Assembly: GCF_002113885.1 (NCBI RefSeq)
Contig: NW_018404135.1
Coordinates: 76,122-140,121, forward strand
From: Mizuhopecten yessoensis
Taxonomy: Eukaryota
DNA: 64,000 nt
Direction of reading: 5' to 3'
The notes under the pieces were generated by a model. That model saw only the letters and a program-made list of their open reading frames with translations, was not told the DNA's origin and ran no database searches. The translations under genes and the position numbers were made by a program. This document shows positions 16,476 through 63,785 of the stretch, piece by piece (positions within the stretch are counted from its first letter, which is position 1; the number at the start of each line of letters is the position of its first letter).

Positions 16476-16954
16476 GTCTTTTGTCGTCCTATTTTCACAT
16501 TAACGGGGATATTTTAACAGTGCCTTTTGTCGTCCCTTTTTATCAATTGCAATAACTGAATCTGTAGGTTTTCGATATGTTTCATATATCATCAGAACAA
16601 ATACGAACCGATATAAACATCGAAGTTCTTTTCTGTCAACTTGTAAAAATATTGTGTAGCATATATTAACACTCATTACTGAAAGCACTAATTATTTGCG
16701 ATAAATATATGTTGTCACCGTTTTGACGAATGAGCAAGGTATATATATGGGTGTTTGTGCAGTTTGTTCATTTGAATTTTCGCGAATATGTTATCAAAAC
16801 GAGTATGACGATTCACTAAATATTCAAATTTGCAAGTGCGATGAATATATACTAGCGGAAAAAAGAAACTGTGCATGCGGAGAATTGTAATACATGAAAA
16901 TTCACACACATGACCGAGTATGACACATACGCACTATCCGTGTGTCATTGACAG

Positions 16955-18825: not shown

Positions 18826-21436
18826 CTATGTGAACTCAGTATTGACCCCTGCTGTGTTTACGTCACTCCTGAGCGGAACTTATTGATTCCATAACGTGGA
18901 AAATGGAATGCAACTGTTAATAAATAACAAATTAATTCTACCTGAAAATCTTGTTCTACGTCATACACATTTATTTTTATAACACATTTTAGGCATGCAC
19001 AGTTTCTTTTTTCCGCTAGTATATATTATTAATAAGCTGAACTTATCACCGAGATTTGTGCTATAATTTCAACGATTCTCCTCACTTGTTGTATCTCTCC
19101 GTGTACCTCGATAAAAAAAGCTGATATTGTCGCTGATTTATAGGATGTAGGCGCAGACTCCGGCTTTAATCATTGATATATTGTTAATAGCAATCAGCAA
19201 ACTATTCATCAATGCATTAGTTATCGTTACTAAGTCTGCATGAAAATAAATAGATAATCTTACATATCAACTGGATATATTTGCTGGTATGGTCACTGAT
19301 GAATTATGGGTAACAAACAGCTGCGCGCTCCTGACAATCAAATGGGAAGTGGAATTCGTAGCGCGATGTCTGGATGTCGAGACGAGCGGAAGAGCTCTTT
19401 AAATAATATGCTTGCATTGATAAATTGCACAACAAGATGTTTTCGTTCCATGTCTTTGCTGTAGACAGACTATTTAAAGTCAATATCGATAACAAATATG
19501 TATACCCGTCTCAGGCTTTTTAGTGCAAAGAAGAGCAATGGGAATCACATGTTTGTCCTGACGGAACTGAACAGACATTTTCTTTTCAACTTTGGAATAG
19601 CCATGAATTACATTTAAAGTTTAATTGAAATAAATGTAAATGTCACTTTCAACAAGTTTTTATAAGGACATTCATGAAAGTTTTATCTTTAATGCTATTT
19701 AGAGTCAGTTTAGAATTGGTACAATACATTTTGTCTTTCTCTCTTAAGAGCTACACTTTACTCGGAAGATTCTCTTTGACTTTAAACATTTTTTATTGTC
19801 CAAAAAGACTCTCTGAAGGAATATAGTCATCTATCTACACTAAAGTGCCCGAAATATTTGATTTTTTTTCCTTTTCAAATACATATGTATCAAACCAAGT
19901 CACTGGCACTATATCCGAACCTTAAGCCGTCTGTAACATAGGTAGACAAAATAATTTCACTTAATCACACAAGTTTGTCTACGCTTGTGCGCTGATCTCT
20001 GCCTTCCACTTTTCTAGGATTTAGCATTTCTTGTTGTTCACCTACATACTGATTGTAAACGAAGAAAACCCAAAATTATCAACATGGTTGCTAGTCTCCA
20101 TTGCATATTGATGTCTACTAATGCACTAAAAATAACCCCTAGTGAGACTTACATACAGGGGCGATAACTCTTACACAACCAAATGTGAAGATAAAAGTGC
20201 ACAACGCAGGATCACGAAAACTTGAAGACTTTTGGTTCGTCATAAAACTTTTTAGAATTAGAATCATGACGCATCATTTTAGAAAATGTTTTTTTTCAGA
20301 AAGCCTTTTGAACGAAATGAGTTTTGTATAATATCATTAGAACTAAATATGTTTTATTGCATCGTTAGAAGGAGGCGTTTTAGCTGTAATTTGAGAAGGA
20401 TCTGAGCGGTTCACATGGCGACAACGTAGACGCTTGCGTTGACAGGTTAATCGTATTGTATTACTAATTTATTGACATTAATTAAGACAAAATTCAGAAT
20501 ATCTTATAACATGCTAATTACCAAACGGTATACAATTGATACAATAAAGTCAACATAGGTAAAAACAAACGTAAAATATTTCACCGGATTTTGACAATAT
20601 TTTTCTGGAATATTCTTCGTAAAGATGAGCTTTGCTGCTGTACAGATGCTCCTATATCCTGTCGTTTGAAAAGTGATGTTGTATAATGATGTTGATATAT
20701 TTTGTAGATGGGATTGTAGCCTTCTTGTATATTGATTTATATAGAGTATTGTGTAGCTGGTCTGTTTGTCAACCTTATACTCTCAATACCAAAGATAACT
20801 CTGACACTTCTGTTACATTAAACTGGCTTTCAATGAATCTTTTATGTTGAAACTCTAATAGCTGTGTGGGGTAATCAACTGTGATGTGTACTCCAACTGT
20901 TCTCCTGTATTACTGTTATGTGTGGACAAATGGAGAAAGTGTCACCCTAGCTTCTCGGGTGAATGCAGACTGATTGTGATACATCTTAGATTGATATTTC
21001 AACGTCAATGAACACACATCAACTGCTATTATTCAAAAGTAGGTATCAATAACAACGACAGTTAGGAACTGCTATAAATGGCGGAAGGGAGTGGACCGTT
21101 GATGGGGGATCACAAATATCGTCATTGTCATGGCCATCTTCGTGACAGCACGTGCTTGTTGCGTTATCTCCATGTCAATAAAAGACCTTACCGACGCCAT
21201 ATACAGTAAGGCATCAAACTCGGAGTGAAATATTGAAAGGCTTTAGACTGTTCGTGACTTAATATGAATGTACTTTTTCATTTTATCATTGAATCCATGA
21301 CGTCATAACTACCCTAATTGTCCGATTACACATAGAAGTGACACCCAAATGAAGATTGGTGAATTAAAGCTCAGTTAAGGGATATAGTTAATGAGAAAGA
21401 ACCACTCTGTGATGAAATGTTGGGTATCCTGTCTCT

Positions 21437-24108
21437 GGGCAGTACAAAGAACGGGAGACTCGTAGTCTGCTACCCACAGTATTATACTGTTTATATTATC
21501 AAGGGCAGTACAAAGAACGGGAGGCTCGTAGTCTGCTACCCTCAGTATTGTACTGTTTATATTATCAAGGGCAGTAACAAGAACGGGAGACTCACAGTCT
21601 GCTACCCTCAGTATTATACTCTTTATATTATTAAGGGCAGTACAAAGAACGGGAGACCCGCAGTCTGCTACCCTCAGTATTATGCTGTTTATATTATCAA
21701 GGGCAGTACCAAGAACGGGAGACTCACAGTCTGCTGCCCTCAGTAGTATACTGTTTATATTATCAAGGGCAGTCCAAAGAACGGGAGACTCGTAGTCTGC
21801 TACCCACAGTATTACACTGTTTATATTATCAAGGGCAGTAACAAGAACGGGAGACTCACAGTCTGCTTCCCTCAGTAGTATACTGTTTATATTATCAAGG
21901 GCAGTCCAAAGAACGGGAGACTCGTAGTCTGCTACTCTCAGTATTATACTGTTTATATTATTGGGTATCCTGTCTCTGGGCAGTACAAAGAACGGGAGAC
22001 TCACAGTCTGCTACCCTCAGTATTATACTCTTTATATTATTAAGGGCAGTACAAAGAACGGGAGACTCACAGTCTGCTTCCCTCAGTAGTATACTGTTTA
22101 TATTATCAAGGGCAGTCCAAAGAACGGGAGACTCGTAGTCTGCTACCCGTACAAAGAACGGGAGACTCGTAGTCTGCACCCACAGTATTATACTGTTTAT
22201 ATTCTCAAGGGCAGTACAAAGAACGGGAGGCTCGTAGTCTGCTACCCTCAGTATTGTACTGTTTATATTATCAAGGGCAGTCCAAAGAACGGGAGACTCG
22301 TAGTCTGCTTCCCTCAGTATTATACTGTTTATATTGTCAAGGGCAGTACAAAGAACGGGAGACCCGCAGTCTGCTACCCTCAGTATTATACTGTACATAG
22401 AAGTGACACCCAAATGAAGATTGGTGAATTAAAGCTCAGTTAAGTGATATAGTTAATGAGAACGAACCACTCGGTGATGAAATGTTGGGTATCCTGTCTC
22501 TGGGCAGCACAAAGAACGGGAGACTCGTAGTCTGCTACCCGTACAAAGAACGGGAGACTCGTAGTATGCTACCCTCAGTATTATACTGTGTATATTATCA
22601 AGGGCAGTACAAAGAACGGAAGACACGTAGCCTGCTACCCTCAGTATTATACTGTTTACATTATCAAGGGCAGTACAAAGAACGTGAGACTCGCAGTCTG
22701 CTACCCTCAGCATTATACTGTTTATATTATCAAGGGAAGTACAAAGAACGGGAGACTTGCAGTCTGCTACCCTCAGTATTATTCTGTTTATATTATCAAG
22801 GGCAGTACCAAGAACGGGAGACTCGCAGTCTGCTCCCCTCAGTATTATACTGTTTATATTATCGAGGGCAGTACAAAGAACGGGAGACTCGTGGTCTGCT
22901 ACCCTCAGTATTATACTGTGTATATTATCAAGGGCAGTTCAAAGAACGGGAGACTCGTAGTCTGCTACCCGTACAAAGAACGGGAGACTCGTAGTATGCT
23001 ACCCTCAGTATTATACTGTGTATATTATCAAGGGCAGTTCAAAGAACGGGAGACTCGTAGTCTGCTACTCTCAGTATTATACTGTTTATATTATTGGGTA
23101 TCCTGTCTCTGGGCAGTACAAAGAACGGGAGACTCGTAGTATGCTACCCTCAGTATTATACTGTGTATATTATCAAGGGCAGTTCAAAGAACGGGAGACT
23201 CGTAGTCTGCTGCCCACATTATTATACTGTTTATATTATCAAGGGCAGTACCAAGAACGGGAGACTCACAGTCTGCTACCCTCAGTAGTATACTGTTTAT
23301 ATTATCAAGGGCAGTACAAAGAACGGGAGACTCGTAGTCTGCTACCCTCAGTATTATACTGTGTATATTATCAAGGGAAGTACAAAGAACGGGAGACTCC
23401 TAGTCTGCTACCCTCAGTATTATACTGTTTATATTATCAAGGGCAGTACAAAGAACGGGAGACTCGCAGTCTGCTACCCTCAGTATTATACTGTTTATAT
23501 TATCAAGGGCAGTACAAAGAACGGGAGACTCGCAGTCTGCTACCCTCAGTATTATACTGTTTATATTATCAAGGGCAGTACAAAGAACGGGAGACTCGCA
23601 GTCTGCTACCCTCAGTATTATACTGTTTATATTATCAAGGGCAGTACAAAGAACGGGAGACTCGCAGTCTGCTACCCTCAGTATTATACTGTTTATATTA
23701 TCAAGGGCAGTACAAAGAACGGGAGACTCGCAGTCTGCTACCCTCAGTATTATACTGTTTATATTATCAAGGGCAGTACAAAGAACGGGAGACTCGCAGT
23801 CTGCTACCCTCAGTATTATACTGTTTATATTATCAAGGGCAGTACAAAGAACGGGAGACTCGCAGTCTGCTACCCTCAGTATTATACTGTTTATATTATC
23901 AAGGGCAGTACAAAGAACGGGAGACTCGCAGTCTGCTACCCTCAGTATTATACTGTTTATATTATCAAGGGCAGTACAAAGAACGGGAGACTCGCAGTCT
24001 GCTACCCTCAGTATTATACTGTTTATATTATCCCAAGGGCAGTACAAAGAACGGGAGACTCGCAGTCTGCTACCCTCAGTATTATACTGTTTATATTATC
24101 AAGGGCAG
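21437..24108. repeat. 66-bp minisatellite array E (GGGCAGTACAAAGAACGGGAGACTCGCAGTCTGCTACCCTCAGTATTATACTGTTTATATTATCAA), with an internal re-copy of its 5' flank
   Basis: 22-aa periodic ORFs on both strands; near-perfect units at 23447-24108; flank 21331-21436 repeated at 22396-22501. Confidence 0.98.
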
Positions 24109-24530: not shown

Positions 24531-24993
24531 TCTCACCATCCTTTATACCAGAAGTTAGGCATCGTACGCGCATTGCTCAACAGATATGATGCAATTGTCA
24601 AAAAACAACAGGACAAAATACAAGAGAAAATAACACCACTAGGGCAATGGAAAACTGAGCATATCCTGAATGTGCCCTAAAACGGGTGCAAAAACATTGT
24701 CAAAGTAAGGGAAAGGACAAGAAAAAGCCAATCAAGGATGAAAACAAAATATAAAAGGTATATTCGAAACGATCCAGAGGATATATCGCGGTCATGGCAT
24801 AGCAACAGCCATAATGCCTAACAAGACGCTTCGTAATATCCTAGCTCATCCAAAGGATAGAACACCTAAAGAAAACGTCTTAGAGTGCGTACACCAAATC
24901 GGATGCAAAAACCGCGACACATCGTATATTGGAGCGACTGGAAAGCGAGCCTTGGTGAACACCAGAAAGACACAGAAACCCAAGAGCGAAAGA
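24531..24993 (+). mobile_element. Penelope-like element fragment, 5' part: RT C-terminus and first half of the GIY-YIG endonuclease
   Basis: Translates SHHPLYQKLGIVRALLNR..., AYPE (cf. GYPxW), KGIFETIQRIYRGHGI, PNKTLRNILAHPKD, VHQIGCKNRDTSYIGATG; this is the motif series of Penelope/Poseidon-type elements. Confidence 0.88.
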
Positions 24994-27357
24994 GTCAATA
25001 GTTTCATCCCTACCAAAGTTATTACTGTACGCCCAAATGATAAGCCATGGATGAATAACATTATAAGGCTGAAAATGAGACAACGTAATAGAATTCATAG
25101 AAAGGCCAAAGTAACAAATAATCCGCACTACTGGGAAAGATTTCGTATACTCAGGAATGAAACTATTGACTTGATTCGTGAGGCAAAAGCAAATTATATC
25201 CAAAAACTTGAAAATTGTCTTAATGAAAACATGGTCTCCCCAGACAAATGGTGGAAAATTGCAAAATCTATTACTAATTTCTCCAATAAATCCTCTTCTA
25301 TTCCTCCTCTTGAACATGATGACCAATTCATTCACCATCCTCTTGACAAAGCAGAAATCCTTAACAATCACTTTACTAATATCTCTTCGTCATCCCCTGA
25401 CCTTGAATTACCTCAGACAGCACAGCCCTATACTCCATACTCACTAACTAACATTCATATCACTGAACAAGATGTATCTGACCAAATTAATATTCTTAAT
25501 GTAAATAAACCCCCTGGCCCTGATGGTGTAATCCCTAAAGTTGTAAAAAAATTGAGTAACTCTCTTGCATTACCCCTCTGTCTTTTATTTAATAAAACAC
25601 TTGAATCAGGAATATTACCAAATAGATGGAAACAAGCAAATATAAATGCTATATATAAAGGGAAGGGTTCATCAAATGATGTTTTAAATTATAGACCAAT
25701 CTCAATAACCTCATGTTTCAGTAAAATAATGGAAAAAATTGTCTTCAAAAATCTTTACAACTATCTAATAGAAAATTCTATCTTAACTAAGCACCAGTCT
25801 GGCTTTATACCAGGTGATTCTACTGTTAATCAACTACTATTTATTTATAATGAAATTGTTAGCAATATGGACCAGGGGAAGGAGCTCAGATTTATTTTTT
25901 GTGATATTAGCAAAGCTTTTGATAGGGTGTGGCATAAAGGTCTCTTACATAAACTTAAAACGTATGGAATTGATGGAAATTTACTTTTATGGTTTGAAAA
26001 TTATCTCTCTGATAGATTGCAAAGAGTCACCACTGAAGGTTATCACTCACAGTTTAAGGGTATAAATGCAGGGGTACCTCAGGGATCTGTTCTGGGACCT
26101 TTACTATTTCTCCTTTATATTAATGACATCACTGACAATGTTTCAACTAATATTAAGCTTTTTGCAGATGACACCTCCTTATATGTAATTATAGATGAAA
26201 ACCCAGCACATGCAGCACAAGTTCTGACAAATGATCTCTCTAACATTGGTGAATGGGCAGGTATATGGGACATCAAGTTCAACCCTACCAAAACTAAATC
26301 TGTAATATTTTCTAGAAAACATAACAAACATCACCCTCCAATAACTTTCCAAAACAGCCAAATCACTGACTCAACAGCACATACACACTTAGGACTGACT
26401 TTAAAAGATGATGCATCTTGGAATCAACACATTCTGAATATATATGAAAAAGCTTATAGTAGATTAAATATTCTTCGTTACATTAAAACTAAAGTCAATC
26501 GTAAATCATTAATTAAAATTTATATAGCATTTATCAGGCCAATTTTGGAATATGCAGACATAGTATGGGATAATTGCACTCAACAATCTAAAGAACTTCT
26601 AGAATCTATTCAATTAGAAGCAGCCAGAATCATTACTGGACTTCGATCTGGAACATCTCATAATAAACTTTATAATGAACTTGGTTGGGAAACTCTGTCA
26701 ACAAGAAGAAATAAACACAAACACATAATGATGTATAAAATAATGCATGGGCTGTCACCTCAATACTTACAAGATGTCTTAAATCCTTTCATTAACAATC
26801 AAAACAATAATCCCTATTTCCTCAGACAAACAAGACTGTTTAATCCACCAATATGCAGAACTAACAATTATTTTGACAGTTTCCTCCCTCTAATGTGCCG
26901 CACAACTAACACTACTGATAATGATCTCTTAAACTCCCCAACTCTTGCAACCTTTAAACACAAACTAAATAAAGATATTATTATCGATAATGAATCAACC
27001 TTAATTTTTAAAACTGAAGGTGATAGACGGGCCAACATTATTCTTTGTCAACTTAGAAACTTATGTAGCAATTTAAATTTTGATTTATTCAATGACCATT
27101 TAACTGACTGTCCCTCTTGTGCTTGCTCTTTTGAATATGAAACAGTTTTCCATTACTTTCTTGAATGTCCATTGTATAATGATCTCAGACTTACTTTATT
27201 TACTTCTGTTGATAATTATGGAAATCATAACCATATTGATACAAACATTTTTCTACAAGGCTGTCCTGATTGTGATGGACTAACAAACAGACAGTTACTT
27301 AATGATGTACAGTTATTTATTGGTAAATCTAGGCGTTTTAATCTCTATATGATCTAA
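24814..27357 (+). CDS. Chimeric 847-aa ORF: 60 aa of Penelope GIY-YIG fused to a LINE ORF2 reverse transcriptase lacking the APE endonuclease
   Basis: RT motifs KPPGPDG, NYRPIS, QSGF, DISKAFDRV, GVPQGSVLGPLLF, LFADDT, HLG and C-terminal CACx..Hx4C. Residues 1-60 end exactly at the TSD. Expression is unknown. Confidence 0.85.
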   Translation: MPNKTLRNILAHPKDRTPKENVLECVHQIGCKNRDTSYIGATGKRALVNTRKTQKPKSERVNSFIPTKVITVRPNDKPWMNNIIRLKMRQRNRIHRKAKVTNNPHYWERFRILRNETIDLIREAKANYIQKLENCLNENMVSPDKWWKIAKSITNFSNKSSSIPPLEHDDQFIHHPLDKAEILNNHFTNISSSSPDLELPQTAQPYTPYSLTNIHITEQDVSDQINILNVNKPPGPDGVIPKVVKKLSNSLALPLCLLFNKTLESGILPNRWKQANINAIYKGKGSSNDVLNYRPISITSCFSKIMEKIVFKNLYNYLIENSILTKHQSGFIPGDSTVNQLLFIYNEIVSNMDQGKELRFIFCDISKAFDRVWHKGLLHKLKTYGIDGNLLLWFENYLSDRLQRVTTEGYHSQFKGINAGVPQGSVLGPLLFLLYINDITDNVSTNIKLFADDTSLYVIIDENPAHAAQVLTNDLSNIGEWAGIWDIKFNPTKTKSVIFSRKHNKHHPPITFQNSQITDSTAHTHLGLTLKDDASWNQHILNIYEKAYSRLNILRYIKTKVNRKSLIKIYIAFIRPILEYADIVWDNCTQQSKELLESIQLEAARIITGLRSGTSHNKLYNELGWETLSTRRNKHKHIMMYKIMHGLSPQYLQDVLNPFINNQNNNPYFLRQTRLFNPPICRTNNYFDSFLPLMCRTTNTTDNDLLNSPTLATFKHKLNKDIIIDNESTLIFKTEGDRRANIILCQLRNLCSNLNFDLFNDHLTDCPSCACSFEYETVFHYFLECPLYNDLRLTLFTSVDNYGNHNHIDTNIFLQGCPDCDGLTNRQLLNDVQLFIGKSRRFNLYMI

Positions 27358-28003
27358 CCAGCCATGACCTTATACTTTATACTTTTATACTTTACTATTC
27401 CTATTCCAATTATACTCCACAAATAAGTAACTTTACCTACTTTTCTATAAATGTTATTCTTCTACGGACATAGGAGTTTTAAGTTGAGCATGTTTGTTTG
27501 TTGTTGTTTGTTGTAAGATTTGTTCAATCTGTCTTGTTTTACAGTTTCCATCTTATACATTGAATTACACATAGACTAGCTATCTATTTTCATATTTAAC
27601 TACAATACCTTAACAGTTTTGGCGATTGTGACCTGTGCATATATTTGCACATGGACTTTTGGTCAATGTCTGCCAATATCTGTGTAATTTGATAGCTATA
27701 TAGCTTATATACAATTGTAAAATGTTATAAAAATAAATAATACCTGTGGAAGTGTTTCGTGTGTGATGTGAGAAGTGTGAATGTATTTGTATTTCAGTTA
27801 TGTTAATTAAGAAGGAGTTACATCCCTTTATTTTTTTTATTTTTTTTTATAATTTTCATTTCAAAATTGATGTATTAATTAAATCAAATAAAAATAATAG
27901 AATCCGTTTATTTAGCCACCGCTGGAGAGAATTTATATAGGCTTTGCCTGTTATTCCATCCAATTGACTTGTATCAACTTTGTCAATAAAATTTGTTGAA
28001 ATG
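24994..28003 (+). mobile_element. Young 5'-truncated CR1/L2-type LINE (family 1) with 12-bp target-site duplication AAGAGCGAAAGA
   Basis: TSD at 24982-24993 and 28004-28015; uninterrupted RT ORF; 3' UTR of about 650 bp ending AATAAAATTTGTTGAAATG. Confidence 0.96.
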
Positions 28004-28015
28004 AAGAGCGAAAGA

Positions 28016-31287: not shown

Positions 31288-32530
31288 TTTTCAACAATTT
31301 TTATTGTTTAAAAAACAAATGAATTGGACAACAGGCAAGCCTATATAAGTCCTCTCAAATAGATACCACGTATATACAAGAAATAGATTTTAACATGAAA
31401 GCATTGATATCATTAAACAATATTCAGAGAGTAGGATGATTACTTTGTGTAATGTATAATATTTGAATATGTAAACATCTACTCAAGCTTATACATACTT
31501 GCATACCCACATGCCTACATGTCATACATACCCTCACACATACCCTCACACATACAACACATCAATATACGATGTGTACTCAGTCGAAGTAAGTAAGTAA
31601 TCTACATTATTACAAAATTACTACATATATATGTCATAGTGATATATATAATATCCAGACTGTACAATAATAGAGGTCTTCAGGAAATTTTAATCATTCA
31701 ATTATTATATTATAATCTCTTAAATCGTTCAGTACCATTTATATAGTATTGGACATTAGTTAAAATAAGTTCATTAATATCCTTCGACAGGGTATTATCA
31801 CCAGAAGTTAACAGAGTTGAATTGGAATAACCAATACGGTCATGAATTAAATACCTAGAATTAGAGTAATTAGGACAAGTAAAAAAATAATGATTAGTAT
31901 TATCATCAGGTGAACCACAGGCACATACTGGATCTGGGATAAGGTGATCTATACATTTATCATGATTCAAGTCATTTGCCTCATTTCTTAATTGGTACAA
32001 AATAATATTTAATTTTCGTGGGCTACAATTTTTGAAAGTATCAGAAATAGCTTCAATAGGATTAGCTATAGAATTTTTAAGATTCCTTTTGAAGGAACTT
32101 AGACTAACTGACCCGGTCAGCGAAGGATCAAGACTATTCCATGCCTGCAAGGTACTTGGAAAGAAGCTTGTCTTATAAATATTAGTTCTTGACCTTAGGA
32201 TATTGAAAAATCTGTGGTGACGCAGATAATGAATATTTTACTGATGATTAATGAATGGTTCGATGATATTAAACAAATAATCAGGGGTTAAATGATTTAT
32301 AATTTTATACATTAAAATTAATTTGTGCTTATGTTAAACCAGTTATAATCTTCATTGCATCAATCTGTACAGATTCTATTAAATTTGATTCACCAATAGT
32401 GCAATTGTCCCAAATGGAATCTGAATATTTCAAAACTGGTACAACAAATGAATAGTATAATGTTTCAAGAGTTTTCCTATCCACTTTATGTTTCAACATA
32501 CGTACCAAATTCAGACGTTTACGTGCTAAA
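31288..32530 (-). mobile_element. 5'-truncated, internally deleted CR1/L2-type LINE (family 3)
   Basis: ORF 31710-32150 (WNSLD..SFK..QLRN..DHL..CACG..HYFFTCPNY) is homologous to the other LINE C-termini; 3' end carries the stem-loop and AATAAAAATTGTTGAAA. Confidence 0.9.
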
Positions 32531-33189
32531 TTGTTAATATATATATAATTTAGACGAATACTGATACGTGATCAAATATTTTGACAGTATGTAAATTATT
32601 TAAAGGCGATTCTAGACGCCCATGTACATTGTATCTATATATATATATGTTTATGTCATAAAATTTGAAAAATATAATAAATAAAAAAAAATATAAAAAA
32701 AGACAATGATTTTCCGTTTCGTATTACATAAATTTGAAATACTGCTTGCTACTAGCAGGGGTACCATTGCTATTGACTGTATACTTTGATCACATTGGTA
32801 TATAGGTGACACCATACACAATTGTAATATGTTTGGGAAAAAATAAGCAAAACTGAAACCGTTTATCAGACCTTTAGCTGTATTTCATCTAATCGTGTTT
32901 TTTATAGTCCATTTAAAACGCCGCACAATACTAGTGGCACATGGAAAGCTTCCAAATATTACTATGATTCATACAAATACATAAATACAGACAGTACAAT
33001 TAGACATAATTAAACAAGATCGGCGAGGCGAGTCTGGTGTATAAATCTGAACACTTATGGCCTATCTCCTATATACAACCGCTGAGCGATGGACGCGCCT
33101 TTTTACTTTATGTTATCAGAATAGACGCCTAATGCCAAAGCCCGTGGCCAAAATCCATTATTTTTATGAGAAATATACGTTGTAAAGTT

Positions 33190-33977: not shown

Positions 33978-34907
33978 TACCTTGCTGGACTGCTATAATG
34001 AAGACGGTTGATATGTGGACGATTATTGTGATGACAAAAACACTTTTGTCATTTAAATCCTTTCTTTGATCCAATTAGCTATCAATTTTGTTTTTATTTA
34101 TTGTTTTTATCGCCAAAAGAAACGATTTTCTGTTTAAATGTTTTCAACCAGCTACTGTCGATAAACAAAATAAAAGCAGGTTTAACAATCCTGCACCAAA
34201 ACAACTAATAACACCTCCACTTTCGTCCGCTTATCTAATCGAACAAGTAAGTCGAATCGTTCTTTCTGATAAGTTTTAAAAAAATCCAGGTTATATGTGC
34301 ACGAGCTCTTGTTAATATAGAATACATTGCTAGACGACTTGCAGTACATGTGCATTAAAGTCATACAGAAGAATGAATTGAAAATTGAAAGCATTTGGTG
34401 ATCTTCCCAATCTTTGATTTGAAGAAGACAAAATGAGGAGTGATCTCTTCAAACGAAACAACGCTTAAACGTTTTTCTTCCGAATGTACGTTAGAGTTGC
34501 TTATATAACATGTTAGTAATTGTTTGAAAACTTAAACTGGATCCATTGACTTAGAGGTGTTCTCTACCTTCTACACTTTTGACAATTATAGATAGTTTTC
34601 TATTACATTCTTTGCCCTAGCCACCAGCTGCACCAAATACACATCAGCAACGATGATAACTTTGAGTTCAGAGAGCTTGGGAATGATGCAAGTGTGAAAT
34701 CTTCAGAGAGATATATCTTGTTTCCCAAATATCTTCTCTGATAGGGCCCAAAGACTAAGGTTGAGTAGTAGAAATCAAAGTGTAGACTTCGGTAGCACTG
34801 AAGACGACATCATCATTTCTAGGACAAGCTTTTCTTTGATGGCTTGTTGTACCTGTTCGGCCTACACGAAGAAGAAACACTTGCCTTTAATGGAATATTA
34901 CCCTACA

Positions 34908-35290
34908 CGTAACCTTGAACTGGATTGACAATACATTGTTTTTGCGTGAATGCATGTCATCATAGGACAAACTTAATAGCTAATGGCTTCTAACTATACT
35001 TTATTACCCAAACTAGATCAATATAGCAAAGGTGTTGTTAAACACATTTAGGTTGTTTACAATGACTGACCTGATCACGATAAAATGTGTTTACTTTCGT
35101 CAATTCCTGTCCACCATCACATTATTTTACGACATCCAAACCGAATGGCGTGGGTAACGATTGCATCTTTCTATTACAACAGACAAGGAAACATTTATCA
35201 GTAGTCAGCTTTACTACAATTATCGACATCCTCATCACTAGAGTAGACTGTGATTGTAACGTACACATATTTCTTTTGTGTTTGTATCCT
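34908..35290. repeat. Unclassified interspersed repeat, copy 1 (copy 2 at about 38918-39270)
   Basis: Shared blocks CTTGAxCTGGATTGACAATA, TTGTTTACAATGxCTGACCT, TTTTACGACATCCAAACC..AATGGCGTG, TTACAACAGACAAGGA in the same order and orientation. Confidence 0.8.
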
Positions 35291-38893: not shown

Positions 38894-38917
38894 GTCAGTA
38901 CTACATTTACCTTCGCA

Positions 38918-39270
38918 TAATCTTGACCTGGATTGACAATATATTCAGATATATTTCATTATCGGCCATACTAAATAACTAATGACTTATAACTTAACTA
39001 TAAAAATCAGATCATTATAACGAAGGTATCGTAAAATATTAGATAGATTGTTTACAATGGCTGACCTAACTACGATAAATGTGTTTTCACTCGTCCATTC
39101 CTGTCTATTGTCGCCCCATTTTACGACATCCAAACCAATGGCGTGAGTAACGATTGTATCGTTCTGTTACAACAGACAAGGATGTATTTATAAGTTCTCA
39201 GATTAACAATGATAGCCAACATCTTCATCAGTAATAGTACTTTGGGATCAAAAAGCAATACACATGCTTT
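38918..39270. repeat. Unclassified interspersed repeat, copy 2
   Basis: Colinear similarity to 34908-35290. Confidence 0.8.
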
Positions 39271-39770
39271 TACCCACTGCATGTATCGTAAGAGGTGGCT
39301 AATATGGGAATCTCCTGCATAATTGGGGATTTGCCTTTGTGCCACTTACATGGGGACACAAACACGACCAAAATAGATATGTTGCACCCATTGCAATATA
39401 TGGGATCTTTATATTTCTCTCTACTTCTTACTTCATTATATTTCCTAGCGTCTTGCCTAGCAGTAACTCATTTTTGTGTTGAACGTTCGCCCAGGTGAGG
39501 AAAACATGGGTTCTGTCTCAACAACTGGTTCACCCGTTGTCAGTATAATGTGATCGGGCGGAATGCTGTGCTTAGTTCCATCGGCATGGTATTTCAGTGA
39601 GATAGCACTATAAAATCGGAATCAGAACCGCGCTATCACATGGCGGCAAATACACCAACATACCCTGTCTTCGGCACACATGCACACAGGCACGCTTATA
39701 CACGTGGACGCATGTCCTAAAATGATCTTAGATGTCGGTAGGACGTTAAGTAAGATAAAACCGAACCAAA
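39270..39770 (+). mobile_element. Composite SINE: RTE-5'-like head, box-B-like motif, Meta/MESC-type domain, (CA)n and tail
   Basis: CCCACTGCATGTATCGTAAGAGGTGGCTAA head; GGGTTCTGTCTC; ACTGGTTCACCCGTTGTCAGTATAATGTGA...GGCATGGTATTTCAGTGAGATAGCACTATAAA; tail GGACGTTAA..AAACC. Confidence 0.7.
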
Positions 39771-40559
39771 TCTCTAAGGCAATTGTTATGACCACTTGAA
39801 TTTTATTGTTCGTGGATGGCTGGTGACTCGCTTGTGATATGCATCGTCTTACGTGCGATTAAAGTGCCGCGTTGATTCAGCAACATAATTGTTATTGCAT
39901 TGGCTACATCTGTTATGGTATATGATCCTGCAATTGTCAACGATTTGTCCTTGACTTGTGTAAGCTTTTGTTGAAGGAATTGTATTGTTCATTGGATATG
40001 TTCACTCCAAGTATTTGAAAACTCATTGTAGTATTCATTGTATGGAATTCCAATGTTGATGCTCTTCCCTCTGTTTTCCATAGGTATTTTTCGTTTTCCT
40101 GAAACATTTAAACATCACCTCAGGTTACACAAACGTTCATGACTTTAGTTTGTTCTCCAGCTTACTCCTTGCCCAATAGATTCATAGCCAAGTTCTCTCT
40201 TCCTGTTCTCTTGATGCCTTTAGATAGCTTATTTTACTTAATCATTTAGCGTTTTCTTATTTCAAGCCCTATACAAACCCTTGAGGGAGAACATACACAC
40301 ACATATAGAAATATAGTTTAAACATAATATGTATAAAGAAGATATGATAAATGGTACATATCTATATGTTCAGATAAATAGACGAAAATAAAAATTGGGT
40401 AGAATATTGGTGCATATACGCCGACATTAACATTTAGAATCTAAATGCAGTGTTTGATTGGAGGCACATCAAAAGTTACTGTCACTACAGACAGTGCCAT
40501 GCTAACCAATTACACCTGATTAGTGTGAATGATATAGAAATAAGTAACTTACAATACGG

Positions 40560-42445
40560 TATAGATTAAAATCATCCAGATTTTCAATATATTCGAGAAC
40601 ACAAGAGAGAGAATAACTTGATTTGATTCAATGCTAAGGTTCATGTCTCCCTTAGTGAGAATATTAGTAGCAACGATCATATTGTCAATTTCGTAAGTAA
40701 ATGTAATAAGACTTGCCCTTCCTTTATATATCTTGGGCAATTGAAAAAGAAGTGACTTGCATCTTCATTATAATTACCACAAGCGCAATTTAGGTTATCG
40801 GAAAGATGTAACTTATATATATCTAAATAAAGCTGAATGACATTATTCCGTAGTTGACATGATACTATATGTACCTTCCTGAAGCCACCATATTTGAAAT
40901 ACATATCTGAACAATTAGATGGTAATACGATAGCATAGATAATACCATAGTAAATTCAACTGACTGACATTATTCTATTCCATAGTTGACACAATATCAT
41001 ATTTAACTTCCTGAAGCCAGCATATTCGAAATAAATATCTGAACAATTAGATAGTAATAATATCATTGTACCTTGCTTAGATAGTTCCTGCTTCAACTGT
41101 GACAATAAAGTGAGTTGTTGAAACAGTCTGTCTTGTACCATAAAGACAATAATTTAAGAAAAAACGTTTTTTTGTATAGGTTGGTTCTACATAGAGGAGT
41201 TATAAACATTATTTGATCTCTAAGGCGAGGATTAGTATCATGCTTAATATATGGTATAATGCGTTCATCTAGATGATCAGGACAATGCGTTCATATAGAT
41301 GATCTGGACAGACATGCTATGGCATAATACGTGATTATCTTAATGCTAGTGTATTGAAACAAACTTCATTATATATATAGTTATGACTTGTTCCTCCCCT
41401 CAAACCTGATATTATTCTGACACATTTTCATTGAACTGATTCCAGTAGATCACATTCCCCCAGAGTGCAACTATTCCAGACAACACTAGCGTATACAAGG
41501 GTAAGTCTTATAAAAGACATATAAATTATTTCCAGAGACTTTCTATCAGTTCATTTTTGAGCATTTGCGTTATTTTTTTTAAAACTTTTCTTCATACATA
41601 TAATCAACATGGTCTGATCATTACCCACGAATGTTAAAAAACAAACCAAGATGTGTATAATCTTTAAATTGATAACAGAATTATTAGAAAACAAACCAAG
41701 ATGTGTATAATCTTTAAATTGATAACGGAATTATTAGAAAAAGACAAATCAGGGTAAGCTGTCTCAGAATAATTTTTGTTGAATATATGTAATGATTCTG
41801 TTTTAATAGGATTAAACATTATCCCCATTTAGCTGCCAAGATAGACATTTTCCTAAAATCTGTGAATCTGCAGCGTACCTATCATGGTAATGTATCAAAA
41901 CATAAAGAGATGTGTCATCAGCAAAGAGTTCGACATGTGTCATCAGCAAAGAGTTTGACATGTCATCAGCAAAGAGTTTGAAACGTGTCATCAGCAAATA
42001 GTTTGACATGTGTCATCAGCAAATAGTTTGACATGTGTCATTAGCAAAGAGTTTGACATGTGTCATCAGCAAAGAGTTTGACATGTGCCATCAGCAAAGA
42101 GTTTGACATGTGTCATCAGCAAAGAGTTTTACATGTGTCATCAGCAAAGAGTTCGACATGTGTCATCAGCAAAGAGTTTGAAACGTGTCATCAGCAAATA
42201 GTTTGACATGTGTCATTAGCAAAGAGTTTGACATGTGTCATCAGCAAAGAGTTTGACATGTGTCATCAGTTTGACATGGGTGTGGGGATCATCTTCTGAG
42301 TGATTAATGTACATTACAAATAAGTATAGAACCGAGCCCTCGGTTACACCAGCTTTCAATGTTTGCAAACTAGACTTAAAACCAAGTCTTACGACTCTTT
42401 GTTGACTATTAATTAGAAAACACTGGATCCATTTATTAAAAGAGA
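40560..42445 (-). mobile_element. Old degraded CR1/L2-type LINE (family 4) with internal duplications
   Basis: Minus-strand pieces in LINE order: LKAGVTEGSVL.LFVMYIN (about 42300-42360), LFADDTSLYV (about 41900), HLG, VVWNSC, CQLRN (present twice, 40840-41070), CACG..HFFFNCP. Confidence 0.88.
41910..42279. repeat. 25-bp minisatellite J (ATGTGTCATCAGCAAAGAGTTTGAC), about 15 copies, derived from the LINE RT catalytic motif
   Basis: Reverse complement GTC AAA CTC TTT GCT GAT GAC ACA T translates VKLFADDT; it lies between the GVxxGSVL and SLYV motifs. Confidence 0.95.
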
Positions 42446-43959
42446 AGCATCATTGTCAGACATATTGTGCATGTTCATAATGGACTTTGCAACCCGCCAT
42501 CACTTGCCTGGAAGAATAGATTTAATAGTTTTGCTTGGCTTCTCTACTAGATCAATAACTTTATTTCGCATACCTCTTAGTTTCTAAAAAGCTGCAGTAA
42601 CATTTATATTTTAATCCCTTGAATGTTGACGATTTCTTTTCCGAAAGATTAATCGAATATCTGAATATATTCAGACTTTATCATTTGAAGGAATAGTGAC
42701 AACTTTATGTGATACTCATTTTTCAATACAATTATGAATATCACCTAAAATCAAATCAAATTTACTAAGGCAAATATCTCAATCAATGTCAATAGAATAA
42801 TATTTTGAATAATGATTTTATTAATGAAATCTGTAGATGAGTATTTGTGAGGCACATGATGTCATGATCAGTCAGTTTTGCCTCTAAGATATATTTAAAC
42901 GTCATGAAGACTGTGCTTGTTTCCCATATTAACTGGAGGACCTGTATTAGTATGGATATCCATACACAGTAAAAGAAGTCCTGGGTAGATATAGCACAAA
43001 CAAAACGTTCATATGTAATATTTTTTGTTGCACATCAACCCTACCACACACTTGGTACAGCAAGTTCTTGACCATTATCAAATAGTGATGCTATATATGA
43101 GGCTAGCAATTGTATGTGGTAGCAGCCATGAGGCACAACAACAATATAAACAAAATCAAGCCTCGGTTCCAGGGAAATTATCAGTAATGAAATGGAAACA
43201 AGTATGAATGCATAAACTATATTAGATGACAGATCACTATCAATGTATAGTCTCCATGTTTGGTATTGGTTTGAAATGATGACGTTATAACAAATGCATA
43301 CGTATATACAGTATAGACAGGCAAAGGAAAACACTGACTGACTTGCACATATTTTGTCTTCTTTCCATTATCTATAGGACACCCATTTATCAATTGCTCT
43401 ATTCACAAGACATCCAAACATTCAACCGATTAAGATTATACGACGTTTCCCATTACTGTGGTTTACACGAACTAATAGCCGACGACAATGGGTGATATAT
43501 CATGGTTCCGAACAGGTTTAGGGTTAGGTAGGTACAGTCAATTAATGGTAGAATTCATTAAAAAACAAACCACCACGTATAGCTACCATGATCAGCCAGC
43601 ATATATATTTATTATTGTAATATATACTGAATTAAGTATCAAACATGCTCATATATAATTCTTTACCTTTCTTTACATTCATCAAACTGTGTCATCGACA
43701 TGTACACAGATGGTTTCAGCTTTACTAATCACTTACGAATTTAACATGAATCATGTCATCAGTGCAATGCACAAACTGATTTGCTGTCTATTGCTGTTTA
43801 TTACTTTCCGTTAATTTTGGCGCTCCTCTACAACTGATGTTATGTTACTATATTTAGTAATATGAGCGTCGATTAGTTACCAACTCACTTCCCACCCCAC
43901 CCCTACCCCCGCTCGACCACTGTTGGTTGGATGTTCAGTTGTTGCCATTTTCCTTAATG

Positions 43960-44280
43960 CTTAAAGATTGCTATGTCCGGTCAGGGGACAGAACCCATTG
44001 ATTTCCCTCAACCTGGGCTAACGTTTAACATGAAAGTCAAAGGTAAGGTACTGCTAGGAAATAAACAGTAGTTAGAAGTATAGACAAATATAAAGGTCCA
44101 AAGAATCGCAATGGGCGTAGCAGATTTATTTTGGTCGTTTTGTGTCCCCAAGTAGAGGGCTTAAAATACCAATCCCCAGTTCTGTAGGGGGTTCCAACAT
44201 TAGCTGCCTCTTACGAACATGCAGTGGGCACTAGTAGGTGTATTCTGTTCTCGTTCCCTAACCTGCAGAGTGTTGACCAA
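43960..44280 (-). mobile_element. Second, partial copy of the composite SINE at 39270
   Basis: Reverse complement shares CCCACTGCATGT.CGTAAGAGG..GCTAAT, TGGGGACACAAA(C)ACGACCAAAATA, TTTCCTAGC, AACGTT.GCCCAGGT and ATGGGTTCTGTC. Confidence 0.8.
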
Positions 44281-55526: not shown

Positions 55527-57322
55527 ATTGATTTGATTACACTAAAACCAAAGCTTGTGAAGAAAACATTTCCGAAAAACGTCAAAGTTGGTTAGGAAAT
55601 GTCGTTATCTATTATTCTTTGAAAGAAATCTTTATTGTTTATTTCCCGTGTGCGGTTGAAGCAGAGAAGCTTGGGTAGAGAAGCCGTTACTTTCTCCTTT
55701 CCACAGGGCAATTTTATTTGGTTTTACACTACCAACATTTGGTAGCTGGTTTTGGTTCCTTTTTCTTCTGTCTTTGTCTTTTCGTGATTATGCGGCGGAA
55801 AACAATGAAGACGAATAGACGATAATCAATGTTATCTTCCATTAAAAAGAACAATCTGATAACGGATTTAAGGACATGAAATTTCTTTGCTTCGCCATTT
55901 GTTTTCTAGTTTTCGATGCAAAATAACGATAATTGTTGTCTTTTTGCAGGATTTTTGTATTACAACTAAAAAACCCAAGGTAAATAAGGCTAATAATCGA
56001 GTCTGGCGCCAGTTAGTGTTCAATAATTGATACAATGTATCCATGTTATTGATTATACATATAACAAGAGGAGCCACGTCTGTCCACATTGGTAAAGAGA
56101 GCCTCAAGTGTAGGTTTCAGGTTTGGCTGAAAGCATCAAGGCCCGTCATATTCGTTGACGTTACACACCGGAATACTTCACATATCCCGGTAATTGTCGC
56201 CTTGATTCAGTTAAGGCCGCTATTATACATATTTCAGGATTTTTGTTTAGACATTGTGATGCCATTATTTTAATGTATGTAACCCCTGAACTAAATTACA
56301 TCGATCTTTTTTTTCTCGGTTAGTTAATCTTAGTTTAAATATGGTGACTCATAAATAGGTAAGCGGTACACAGACTCGCAAAAAAGGTAACTCATTTGAT
56401 ATGTCTGAAATGTTAAGTCTGTAACTATCAGGAGGCATACAAAAATAAAGGAAAATAAATTAATTTAAAAAAAAAATCGTATCATGTTTAATTTCCGTTG
56501 TTGTTTCAATATACTTCCGTTGAGCCTATATGATGTCAGTGTCTTGATTAACGCGCGCGCCCGGTGGCGTAGTCTCGCTCAGTTTCTAAGTTAAATTATT
56601 TCAGGCAGACAAACATGATTTAATGACTATATTTGTCTGTGACAGAACGCCAATGCTGACGGTATCTTGTTTGTCCGCAGCCGTCAGAGTTCAGTCAAGT
56701 ATACATTTCCTCTTCATCACTGTACGCACAACGGACACCGACCTATTTTAAATTTGTATTTCCGTACTTGACCGAAAATGTCCCGGCGACATCACTCATA
56801 TGGTGTAATTGTGTGTGAAAGCTTAGCGTCGTTTCTACTGATGCCAATATGTTAGCGTACGCACGTATAATCTTTCTCTGCCATGTTAGTAGCCCACTAC
56901 GGTATTAAAGGTCTTCTTCTCATCTCAATGTTCATCATCGCAAAACATTATCGCTTCTCTCTGATCTGATATTATGTAGCCGAAACGTTCATTAAATTTA
57001 AATTGACCAATCCTATGTTTATACCTTTTTATCTATGATCAGAGGTCATCTGTTCGTGAAGCCGAAGGTAGTTACATTATGATGGCAGATAACGGCAGTA
57101 AGGTTTACACTAAGTCAGGTATCAGTTTATCATACGAAAGTCTATTCAGTCAGAAGAATTTCCAAGCAGATAATGTTCCATAATATTAAGTGTTGTATTG
57201 ATTGTTTCTGAATTACGACTTCCGCATCCACTTGTGTTGTAGATAAATACCAGTGTCCGCGGGCGAGGAGCTGGTAATCCGCTGTCCCAGGGCCGACCTT
57301 CTTCACCTCATCACACAAAACG

Positions 57323-58265
57323 ATGCACCCCGCGATAAGGGTGTGCTTGGGCCTTGTCAAAAACAGAACATTGCACATCGACCGCAATGAAGGACCGGAT
57401 TGTAAGGACCTGTTTAGGAAACACCTTTCCAATATCTTCAACGAGTCCAGATACGGAAATGCGTCAACGAATGCACTTCCAGATGGTGACAGTTTCGACG
57501 TGTGGCGCTACCTTGCGCATGAATTAGAACCAAGGAGAGATGATCTGCCGACAGTTATCAGCGTCACTATCATATACTGTGTTCTCTTCTGCACTGGAGT
57601 GTTTGGAAATGTTTGCACGTGCATTGTAATAGCCAAGAATAAGTTTATGCACACAGCCACGAATTATTACCTGTTCAATCTGGCCGTGGCAGATCTGCTT
57701 CTGTTATTGATAGGCCTTCCTCCGGATCTCTATACGATATGGGCAATGTACCCATGGATATTTGGCGAAGCGTTTTGTGTGGCACGCGTGCTTTTTGCAG
57801 AGATTTCGACGTTTACGTCGATTTTAACTATAACGGCGTTCACTGTGGAGCGGTACGTGGCCATATGTTTTCCAATGAAGGCGCAGAGAATGTCTAGTTT
57901 GTATCGAGCTGTGCGCGTGATATTCTGCACGTGGTGTCTGTCCACGATATGTGCTATCCCCCAGGCGATACAATACGGGGTAGTGTACATCCCCGACCCA
58001 TGGAACGCCACCCTGATACAGTCTGCTATGTGTACGTTCAAAGCTCAGGAGGGCATCAAATGGACGTTTCAGGTATCGGCCATTATTTTCTTTGCTGTGC
58101 CGATGACTTTTATCACCGTGCTATACACTCTCATCGCGATTACCATCCGGAGATCGACCCTCAGTCGAGGGTCCATGGATTCCTCAAGTAAGGAACATCT
58201 ACGTGGTGTGGAACTCCATGCTCAGCAACAGGCCCGTGCGCGCCGGTCGGTTCTAAAGATGCTGG
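57323..58265 (+). CDS. Rhodopsin-class neuropeptide GPCR, neuromedin U / pyrokinin / CAPA (PRXamide) receptor family; first coding exon (N-terminus to start of TM6)
   Basis: GxxGN in TM1, MHTATNYYLFNLAVADLL, GLP, YPWIFGEAFC, SILTITAFTVERYVAICFP, FFAVPM..LY, VLKML then phase-1 donor G/GTAAG at 58265/58266; N-glycosylation sequons NES and NAS. TM6-TM7 exons were not found in the window; the exact start codon is uncertain. Confidence 0.93.
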
Positions 58266-59377
58266 GTAAGTGCAAATTGTTAGTAACTTTGTTTGATAAT
58301 TTTTAAGTGGACCATCAAAATAGTAGGTCATTTAGAGTCATCACAAAGTTCTGCGGTCGGCGACTAACGAAGGTCAGCAAGAAAAGGAAGCGCTAGGGTA
58401 GAAGAGAAAACGATGTAACCATTTCAGAGCTTTCTAACCCCAAAACAACGCTTCGTCGGGCCTATTCCAGTAATTAATGACATCAATCAAGCATTGATCA
58501 TTGAAATACATATTATTTGTCATCGTTTTTGCTAACTCAATAAAACTCGAAACTTTACCCTATAGATAACGAATGATGCACCTACACCCAGATACCTCGA
58601 TAAGCATCAGTAATTCACAGATATAAAGTAATCTTTATTTGCTTCGCTAAAAATGTATTCTCCTAGGTATCGGAATATTACAATATTTGAAAGAAAAAAA
58701 ACATGATGACAAAGGATAGTATTAAACTAGTTCTTTATTTTTCTCGAATATCACAATTGAAATTCGTTTCTAGAGATGTGTGCAAAATAATAATGATAAT
58801 TGAAAAACATTCATGTGTTCAAGAGAAGTGACGGAATGTGTTCGATCAACAAGGATTTGGATGACACTTCTAAGGTCGAGGCCTTATAAAGTGATGCAAA
58901 TTCCTAGTTCGTGATTACATTTTTTAGCAGGCATAGTCTGGATTCCATCAAAATTGGAACGACTCGCTCACACTCAAACCGTGGTGTTTTTGCTCGCTCA
59001 CACTCAAACTATCGTATTTTTTTTCTCTAAAATTAAGTAACGATATGAAATCTATCAAAGCGTTACGTCCGAATGTACACAAATAATAATTATATCAAAG
59101 AGTTCCTTTAGACACAAACCACTCAGTCATAGCTTGACAAAGGGACCAGTCGGTCTCTAAACTTGGCGACACGTTTAATACGTTCATTATTTGTGAACAA
59201 AATTAAACTTTAATATTAAATAATTATTTCCCAATTAATGAATCTGATTGAAAACACTGATAGTAGTGTTTCGCTCCAATGACCGAAAGTTTATTTGTTC
59301 GTTTAGTCGATAGAGGTAACAAAATTGAGTGCAAATTTTCTAAATATAATGGAGTTTATATGTAATTGTTTTCACAA

Positions 59378-61802: not shown

Positions 61803-63417
61803 TTCATTTCAACAATTTTTATTGACAAAGTTGATACAAGTCAATTGGATGGAATAACAGGCAAAGCCTATATAAATTATCTCCAGTGGTGGCTAAATTA
61901 ACGGATTCTGTTATTTTTATTTGATTTAATTAATGCATCAATTTGGAAATGAAAATTGTAAACAAAAAAAATAAAGGGATGTAACTCCTTCTTAATTAAC
62001 ATGACTGAAATACAAATACATTCACACTTCTCACATCACACTCAAAACACTTCCACAGGTATTATTTATTTTTATAACATTTTACAATTTATACAAGCTA
62101 TATAGCTATCAAATCACACAGATATTGGCAGACATTGACCAAAAGTCCATGTGCAAATATATGCACAGGTCACAGTCGCCAAAACTGTTAAGTTATTATA
62201 ATTTTATATGCAAACAGATAGCTAGTCTATGTGTTATTCAATGTATAAGATGGAAACTGTAAAACAAGACAGATTGAACAAATCTTGCAACAAACAACAA
62301 CAAACAAACATGCTCAACTTAAAACTCCTATGTCCGTAGAAGAATAGCATTTATAGAAAAGTAGGTAAAGTTACTTATTTGTGGAGTATAATTGAAATAG
62401 GAATAGTAAGTATAAGAGTATAAAGTATAAGGTCATGGCTGGTTAGATGGTGTAGAGATTAAAGCGACTCGATTTACCAATAAATAACTGTACATCATTA
62501 AGTAACTGTCTGTTTGTTAGTCCATCACAATCAAGACAGCCTCGTAGAAAGATGTTTGTATCAATATGGTTATGATTTCCATAATTACGAACAGAAGTAA
62601 ATAAAGTAAGTCTGAGATCATTAAACAATGGACATTCAAGAAAATAATGGAAAACTGTTTCATACTCAAAAGAGGAAGCACAAGAGGGACAGTCAGTTAA
62701 ATGGTCATTGAATAAATCAAAAATTTAAATTGCTACAGAAGTTTCTAAGTTGACAAAGAATAATATTGGCCCGTCTATCACCTTCTGTTTTAAAAAATAA
62801 GGTTGATTCATTATCGATAATAATATCTTTATTCAGTTTGTGATTAAAGGTTGCAAGAGTTGGGGAATTTAGAAGATCATTATCAGTAGTGTTAGTTGTG
62901 CGGCACATTAGAGGGAGGAAACGGTCAAACTAATTGTTAGTTCTACATATTGGTTGATTAAACAGTCTTGTTTGTCTGAGGGAATAGGGATTATTGTTTT
63001 GATTGTTAATGAAAGGATTTAAGAATCTTGTAAGTATTGAGGTGACAGCCCATGCACTATTTTATACATCATTATGTGTTTGTGTTTATTTCTTCCTGTT
63101 GACAGAGTTTTCCAACCAAGTTCATTATAAAGTTTATTATGAGATGTTCAAGATCGAAGTCCAGTAATGATTCTGGCTGCTTCTAGTTGAATAGATTCTA
63201 GAAGTTCTTTAGATTGTTGAGTGCAATTATCCCATACTATGTCTACATATTCCAAAATTGGCCGAATGAATGCTATATAAATTTTAATTAATGATTTACG
63301 ATTGACTTAAGTTTTACGAAGAATATTCAATCTACTATAAGCTTTTTTATATATATTCAGAATGAGTTGTTTCCAAGTCAGTCCTAAGTGTGTATGTGCT
63401 GTTGAGTCAGTGATTTG
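61803..63417 (-). mobile_element. Second, shorter and frameshifted copy of LINE family 1 with 11-bp TSD TTTGTCCGTTT
   Basis: Reverse complement matches about 26359-28003 including the whole 3' UTR; TSD at 61792-61802 and 63414-63424; ORF pieces are near-identical to the 847-aa ORF C-terminus. Confidence 0.96.
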
Positions 63418-63785
63418 TCCGTTTGGCATTACATTGCCTATGTATGCTATCTGGAAGCTGTTCAATACCTTTATTTGTCAATATCAGAATATTCAAATAT
63501 CTTCAATTTTCAAAATCAACCATTCAGCTCAAACTATTAACGTATATATTGCTTGTTCAATAAATATAAAAGTCTTTCGTCTAAGTCAGTGGTATCAACA
63601 TCACAACATGACCTCATAATGATGACGACGTTAACATTCGGGCCATGGCATTCATAGCTGATAGGAAAGACATCTGAATGGGGTAGTTACATAGCGGCAG
63701 TGCCATACGATGATAAATGTATTTTTACTATTAAATATAACAGGGACAAAACATAAGTGATCTTTTCAATAGCTGTCTCCCTTCA

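Follow-up and report, generated by a model that had tools for sequence, protein, structure and literature searches.

The array of 25-bp units described here is, with high probability, a functionless minisatellite that derives from a transposable element (TE) and was born at its present locus, inside the decayed reverse transcriptase (RT) gene of a LINE; no function is evident for it. It lies in a window of 64,000 nucleotides of Mizuhopecten yessoensis (i.e. the whole stretch of DNA that was analysed, to which all positions refer), and its unit repeats the codons around the catalytic FADD motif. The features discussed below are collected in Table 1.

Table 1. Positions of the array, of its host element and of the features compared with them.
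Feature	Position	Strand	Basis or remark
Minisatellite, 15 units, 25-bp consensus from RT codons (H)VKLFADD(T)	41913..42278	-	TRF and hand split
First unit U0, 18 nt, internal 7-nt deletion	42261..42278	-	unit split
Block 1 (U1-U5): variants a, b, c, d after one plain unit	42136..42260	-	unit split
U6-U7, one private substitution each	42086..42135	-	unit split
Block 2 (U8-U14): plain, a, b, b, c, 2-nt-deleted unit, d; variant order that of block 1	41913..42085	-	unit split
5' copy of imperfect junction repeat	42273..42281	-	7/9 nt match 3' copy; 3 nt exact at junction
3' copy of imperfect junction repeat	41907..41915	-	7/9 nt match 5' copy
Decayed APE-type LINE ORF2 remnant bearing the array	about 40560..43014	-	profile of 60 homologs
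Decayed N-terminal 2A-like (NPGP-type) motif, profile 13-42	42925..43014	-	profile match iE 0.28, weak alone
APE endonuclease start, profile 77-114	42777..42890	-	profile match, weak alone (iE 0.0015)
EN-RT linker, profile 325-444	42422..42751	-	profile match
Left flank: RT region with GVxxGSVL and MYIN, profile 662 onward	42279..42437	-	in frame to array
Right flank: remaining RT and thumb, frameshifts and one stop	41335..41912	-	profile match
ORF2 C-terminal region with Cys/His cluster, profile 996-1098	40585..40904	-	profile match
Second tandem duplication: period 50 bp, 2.2 copies, identity 96%, ends overlapping by 8 nt (7/8 match)	41634..41741		TRF
Third tandem duplication: period 26 bp, 2 copies, identity 92%	41258..41310		TRF
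Fourth tandem duplication: period about 132 bp, identity 82-87% across 84-109 bp	40824..41059		oldest of the four
Comparator: open ORF of a LINE from another, related family, single FADD (codons 26161-26172)	24955..27357	+	Pfam RVT_1

TRF calls the array at 41910-42269 (period 25, 14.5 copies, 92% matches, score 615). Splitting it by hand gave 15 head-to-tail units, of which 13 measure 25 nt, one 23 nt and the first 18 nt. Both the arrangement and the period are those of a minisatellite (head-to-tail units of 10-100 bp). Full units differ from the array consensus by 4% and from one another by 7%. On the minus strand the unit reads as the codons VKLFADDT plus one nucleotide, as the first-pass annotation had proposed, and the expansion from one to about 15 copies that it had suggested agrees with our split. 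The FADD codons, read by eye from this split, are intact in 11 of the 15 units. The left flank (GVTEGSVLYLFVMYINHSEDDPHT) is in frame as far as the array start, and the final unit passes into TSLYV of the right flank. The array exceeds a single unit by 341 bp (2 mod 3) and the reading frame is therefore broken across it, as expected of a 25-bp unit. This break makes no difference, since the element contains stop codons and has lost two long segments as well. No second copy of the array was found in the 64-kb window, where the best match to the unit outside the array is the single FADD site of the comparator, with 6 mismatches in 25. A junction-spanning 28-mer had 0 exact matches in prokaryotic genome contigs, a search with little bearing on an animal repeat, and an Rfam search of 40000-44000 for structured RNA gave 0 matches.

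The host element was delimited with a profile of 1104 positions, built from the 60 homologs of at least 1,000 aa among 120 retrieved. The remnant is colinear with profile positions 13-1098, the APE endonuclease start, linker, RT, thumb and C-terminus following one another as in APE-type non-LTR elements. Thus the decayed minus-strand LINE that had been annotated at 40560-42445 keeps its identity but not its extent, since the element runs on to about 43014. What remains is thus almost the full length of ORF2, interrupted by two large deletions: about 630 bp (profile 115-324) are missing after the endonuclease start and about 650 bp (profile 445-661) after the EN-RT linker. The latter stretch includes the DxSKAFD motif at profile position 635, which aligns to D600 of human L1 ORF2p, and FADD aligns to its residues 700-703. 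We take these aligned aspartates to be catalytic, and the second deletion removed the other catalytic aspartate of the host element. Two codons, GP, are also missing from the RT region of the left flank. A Pfam scan of the two short array flanks alone gave no match, and neither a target-site duplication nor a 3' tail was recognisable by eye at the ends of the element, which are decayed.

Exo_endo_phos and RVT_1 were above cut-off in the three full-length homologs scanned (3/3), and 26 of the 60 homologs have an NPGP-type 2A-like pattern at their N-terminus. In the remnant the corresponding motif is backed by its position and by a tblastn match to homolog P0084 (10/15 identical). It is compatible with several clades: N-terminal 2A-like motifs occur in the Rex1, L2, L2A, Crack, CR1 and Ingi clades (PMC3708506), and CR1-Zenon is a bivalve-rich clade (PMC10294476). 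As in the 2A-bearing APE-type elements (PMC3708506), the homologs combine Exo_endo_phos with RVT_1 (and a weak zf-RVT), often with the NPGP-type motif of which the remnant keeps a decayed form; unlike them, the host element here is broken and internally deleted.

The single-copy ancestral state on which the original proposal was built agrees with all the relatives that were compared at the protein level. The comparator, whose ORF matches Pfam RVT_1 with an E of 7e-33, has a single IKLFADDT at 26152-26175, and its LFADDT aligns to LFADDM of human L1 ORF2p (PDB 8SXT; E 2e-12). The array unit corresponds to profile positions 715-725, i.e. to the Y/FxDD motif as defined by homology to solved LINE RT active sites. 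This motif occurs once in 120 of 120 homologous proteins, a kind of set that is biased to open frames. We also fetched 80 related DNA loci (L001-L080) with two other peptide patterns: the motif is present once in 58, absent from 21 and present twice in one, and TRF detected no array over the motif in any of the 80. In the locus with two motifs (L061) the YADD region is found at L061:100 and L061:1030, 930 bp apart, with an identical 20-aa context. These loci are animal-type LINE sequences within bacterial genome records, many of them from mollusc symbionts, and probably reflect host contamination of assemblies. Queries aimed at the element's own family gave no match with 58 aa of the flank and about 50% identity at most with 70 aa of the thumb; the single ancestral copy is therefore established for related families alone. 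The best DNA match to the unit among the relatives is 21/25.

With the array counted as one unit, the spacing from the Y of YIN to the F of FADD is 15 aa, and it is the same in 119 of 119 matched homologs; the array thus occupies the place between MYIN and SLYV where FADD had been expected. Ungapped and in register, DNA identity to 57 single-FADD sites (56 related loci and the open ORF of the window) is 47% for the left flank, 64% for the unit and 46% for the right flank. Shifted controls gave 17-30%, 18-35% and 26-41% respectively, so that the margin of the right flank is small. Both flanks are in register without gaps, and no further FADD is left in them. Colinearity of the flanks with a LINE RT, whose failure had been named beforehand as ground for rejecting the proposal, was found both in the profile map and in the in-register DNA identity. 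From the family spacing with one unit and this in-register identity we conclude that the unit is the FADD site itself and not an inserted satellite. In blastx the unit matches 54 of the 60 homologs, compared with 6 or fewer for the other matching units of the window (63 unit consensuses tested); the test is insensitive, as it also missed the 26- and 50-bp units of the host element.

The order of the units retains the history of the array. Four derived variants (a, b, c and d, one being a double substitution) appear in the same order twice, in U1-U5 and in U8-U14. Relative to block 1, block 2 has one extra b unit and one extra unit with 2 nt deleted, and corresponding units of the two blocks are identical. 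Some order of four markers is repeated in 162 of 7,560 orderings (p=0.02). From this repeated order of shared variants it follows that the array grew in several rounds: it came to at least five units, gained about 4% change, underwent a recent block duplication and afterwards gained or lost single units.

This pattern bears on a reading in which a non-autonomous LINE with internal deletions was the birthplace of the array, or of its first dimer, and carried it along on retrotransposing, giving a mobile VNTR present at several loci. Such an origin would fit the structure of the host element, which keeps both ends of ORF2 and is missing two stretches of about 630-650 bp in between. TE-derived repeats found at more than one locus are known (185 of 5,932 clusters in the human survey PMC3389668), and the relatives that we retrieved are all outside the element's own family, which leaves room for an array-bearing subfamily. 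We nevertheless consider it unlikely: the window holds no second copy, the several rounds of growth took place at least partly in place, and single-locus repeats are the majority in the same survey (5,747 clusters; PMC3389668).

Six in-frame segments of the remnant, chosen by hand, served to measure the decay of the element. In them changes affect 21 of 77 near-invariant residues, and the 268 codons include 4 stops. The divergence of the element is roughly 14% per site (range 8.5-21%), versus 4% between units and their consensus; the 14% errs on the high side, since open-ORF controls themselves show differences at 4/176 and 7/66 such sites. The array is therefore likely younger than the death of the element. 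As an array can turn over, however, the 4% gives only a minimum age, and an earlier start could be hidden. In another reading the RT slipped on its template at insertion and made the first step from one to two copies, the expansion at the DNA level coming later. Younger TEs carry more tandem repeats, and initiation at retrotransposition has been suggested (PMC3389668). In line with this, the family-invariant LFADDT is unchanged in the unit consensus and 7 of 24 such residues are changed in the left flank, but an unchanged motif is also the reason why the case was noticed. The units are moreover 4% from their consensus against an element decay of about 10-14%, and the other three duplications, about 4% to 15% diverged, argue for a process that continued after insertion. 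We thus hold RT slippage at insertion to be quite unlikely.

How the first duplication arose may be read from the ends of the array, where the two copies of an imperfect repeat lie one period apart (score 5). Three exact nucleotides are reached by 7.7% of random LINE positions and a score of 5 by 3.9%; in the same register this score is reached by 0 of 58 relatives. The microhomology was chosen post hoc and is shorter than the 5-10 bp of the Haber-Louis model, in which minisatellites are born between direct repeats of that length (as summarised in PMC3389668 and PMC6947457). It is suggestive of this route: as in the model, the array ends bear a short direct repeat at one period, with later growth through full-unit homology, but the repeat is imperfect (7/9, 3 exact) and only marginally above chance. 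The slipped-strand model, which as used in PMC3389668 (its ref. 14) involves an incomplete terminal unit truncated by at most 10%, does not describe the array, U0 retaining 18/25 nt with an internal loss. To place these ends among others we used 19 arrays of the window (21 were picked and two dropped, one at the window edge and one containing N). Eleven of the 19 end 0-10 nt from a whole unit, versus 5.0 expected (p=0.003), and seven show an overlap of 3-10 nt, versus 3.7 expected, which is marginal (p=0.052).

We propose the following course. The LINE inserted and then decayed through substitutions, stops, frameshifts and the two large deletions, as its sequence shows. A single 25-bp duplication would have followed, most probably because the short imperfect repeats 25 bp apart allowed slippage or microhomology-mediated repair. 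The resulting dimer would offer full-unit homology, and several rounds of unequal exchange or slippage may have lengthened it. The variant pattern shows their order: the array first came to five units or more, then paused for long enough that the four variants appeared, duplicated a multi-unit block, and finally underwent single-unit gains and small deletions. The presence of FADD within the unit would be due to chance, in a genome prone to tandem duplication.

The opposite view makes the DNA that codes for FADD a hotspot of expansion in its own right, e.g. through a hairpin whose stem bounds the unit. It can call on a 5-bp stem over 23 of the 25 nt of one unit (-2.2 kcal/mol), which only 4.9% of 1,781 LINE 25-mers match. 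But 12.8% of shuffles of the unit fold equally well, a four-unit multimer is unremarkable (19% of the background folds as well) and the whole array is no better than 93 of 100 shuffles. A general hotspot at FADD finds no support in the related LINE DNA: an array over the motif is found in 0 of 80 loci, and direct-repeat pairs of at least 6 nt across FADD are not in excess (0.61 vs 0.55 in the background, n=46, p=0.56). We regard a hotspot as very unlikely. A random 25-bp unit covers the 12-bp FADD motif 0.7% of the time and one of four units does so about 10% of the time. Because the element has three more duplications and tandem arrays make up 37% of the window (24 TRF loci, 23,795 of 64,000 bases), the overlap of the array with the catalytic motif is most likely a coincidence. 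The significance that the first-pass annotation implied for FADD was overstated: the array is one of four duplications in an element that is dead otherwise, relatives show no predisposition of the site, and the phenomenon is known (PMC3389668, PMC9659126).

We also looked for tandem duplications in other LINE sequences. A diagonal scan found in-frame internal duplications in 3 of 268 proteins, two of them LINE-type (P0239, 41 aa; P0117, 11 aa). P0179, with 11 matching stretches, was rejected as a LINE-derived repeat protein, being an unrelated Ig-domain repeat protein. Four other LINE pieces of the window (5.6 kb) show no tandem duplication, which tells against a uniformly high rate of such events. 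One LINE family is present in the window as two copies, 26352-28005 (+) and 61803-63424 (-), 93.6% identical over 1,655 bp; the scanned parts of these copies are likewise free of tandem duplications.

An assembly or sequencing artefact that inflates the copy number is highly improbable. The one N of the window (8850) does lie within a near-perfect 105-bp duplication resembling a gap-overlap artefact, but the array has no N, and its nested, ordered variants, including a shared double substitution, would be unusual for collapse or stutter errors. The exact copy number could nevertheless be off. As for the chance insertion of an unrelated satellite at the RT active site, whose probability is practically nil, unrelated arrays abound in the window, but the in-register homology of the unit to the site, its blastx matches and the gapless fit of flanks devoid of another FADD refute it.

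Several other features of the window were recorded. The duplication with the only N spans 8748-8953 and is probably a contig-overlap assembly artefact. At 16998-17462 a GCGG microsatellite is followed by 2.9 copies of a 150-bp repeat, a layout that we assume to recall that of bivalve Helitron-related non-autonomous elements with internal tandem repeats. A Tc1/mariner-like transposase remnant lies at 18124-18825 (+; Pfam DDE_3, E 6e-17), and a short inverted match (16844-16892 / 18978-19027) may represent its terminal repeats. The array of 66-bp units at 21437-24108, a period that is a multiple of 3, has long open frames on both strands and a higher-order structure. The 871-aa frame that includes the comparator has an N-terminal part (24742-24990) without LINE homology, homolog coverage starting at about 24955; this part is likely unrelated sequence reading through into a 5'-truncated LINE. 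Further 5'-truncated LINE fragments of related families are present at 8986-10008 (-) and 31716-32655 (-). Old dispersed repeats of about 74% identity form the pairs 34902-35240 / 38910-39233, which flanks a 41-bp array, and 39257-39517 / 43987-44244. Finally, 57278-58306 (+) is a rhodopsin-family GPCR exon; its mollusc homologs are named pyrokinin-1 receptor-like, and the best named match is from Pinctada imbricata (69% identical).

TE-derived minisatellites are already well documented, and the array is an ordinary case with an unusually legible history. In human 7,276 such repeats were listed, 601 of them from L1, mostly single-locus and locally expanded (Ahmed & Liang 2012, PMC3389668). To count as TE-derived in that survey, an array must share one period or more with a TE or have a unit similar to TE sequence; here the whole array is within the LINE remnant and its unit matches relatives at up to 21/25. 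The filter of the survey (units of 20 bp or longer, with a GC content of 40% or more and a unit identity of 95% or more) is a cut-off and not a biological definition, and the array compares with it at 25 bp, GC 40% and an identity of 92% (TRF) or 96% (to the consensus). It resembles the human repeats in having a unit of at least 20 bp inside a TE, local stepwise growth and an ancestor known from the TE, but differs in its bivalve host, in the position of the unit on RT active-site codons and in its TRF identity of 92%, below the 95% filter (PMC3389668).

Satellites that contain LINE ORF2 sequence are also known, i.e. PROsat in Phodopus, Pvc 20 in seal and HinfI (CR1) in chicken, non-coding parts of TEs being the more usual source of satellites (PMC9659126). 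The array shares with them tandem DNA akin to LINE coding sequence; they contain or resemble a piece of ORF2, whereas here a short unit stands in place between the original LINE flanks (PMC9659126). The SINE-derived satellites of squamates (PMC10702118) are comparable in that part of a retroposon was amplified in place, with alternating locus-specific subvariants, but their units of 70-290 nt come from SINEs and occupy many loci, unlike the array here. We found no published report of an array on the Y/FADD codons, in a search of the literature that was thin for subscription journals.

The array leaves knowledge of minisatellite origin and of LINE biology unchanged. It makes a clear teaching example, as one can read from the sequence which state was ancestral, where the junction lies and in which order the array expanded. 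It would be more important if other copies carried the array, a LINE-derived element then being the vehicle of a VNTR, or if duplications counted across the genome in LINE remnants of known age pointed to a very high birth rate of minisatellites in this lineage. The host element has four independent duplications of at least 25 bp in about 1.9 kb at roughly 10-14% decay, i.e. about one per 50-65 substitutions, and they span stages from 2 to 15 copies; their local enrichment is weak (p=0.09 for three TRF loci). That the bivalve lineage has an unusually high rate of minisatellite birth, with dead LINE copies as a ready assay, is a tentative and rather doubtful idea, against which stand this weak enrichment and the duplication-free LINE pieces of the window, the pair of 93.6% identity among them. 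Dead copies lend themselves to such an assay because their single-copy ancestral state and their age are known. If this element is typical, the birth rate, its dependence on microhomology and the chance that a dimer expands would be measurable genome-wide. In two scallops no other class of repeats is as large as the tandem repeats (11.3% and 21.7%; PMC5700196, PMC10225492), and a high birth rate, if true, would help explain why they rank first among the repeats of some scallops.
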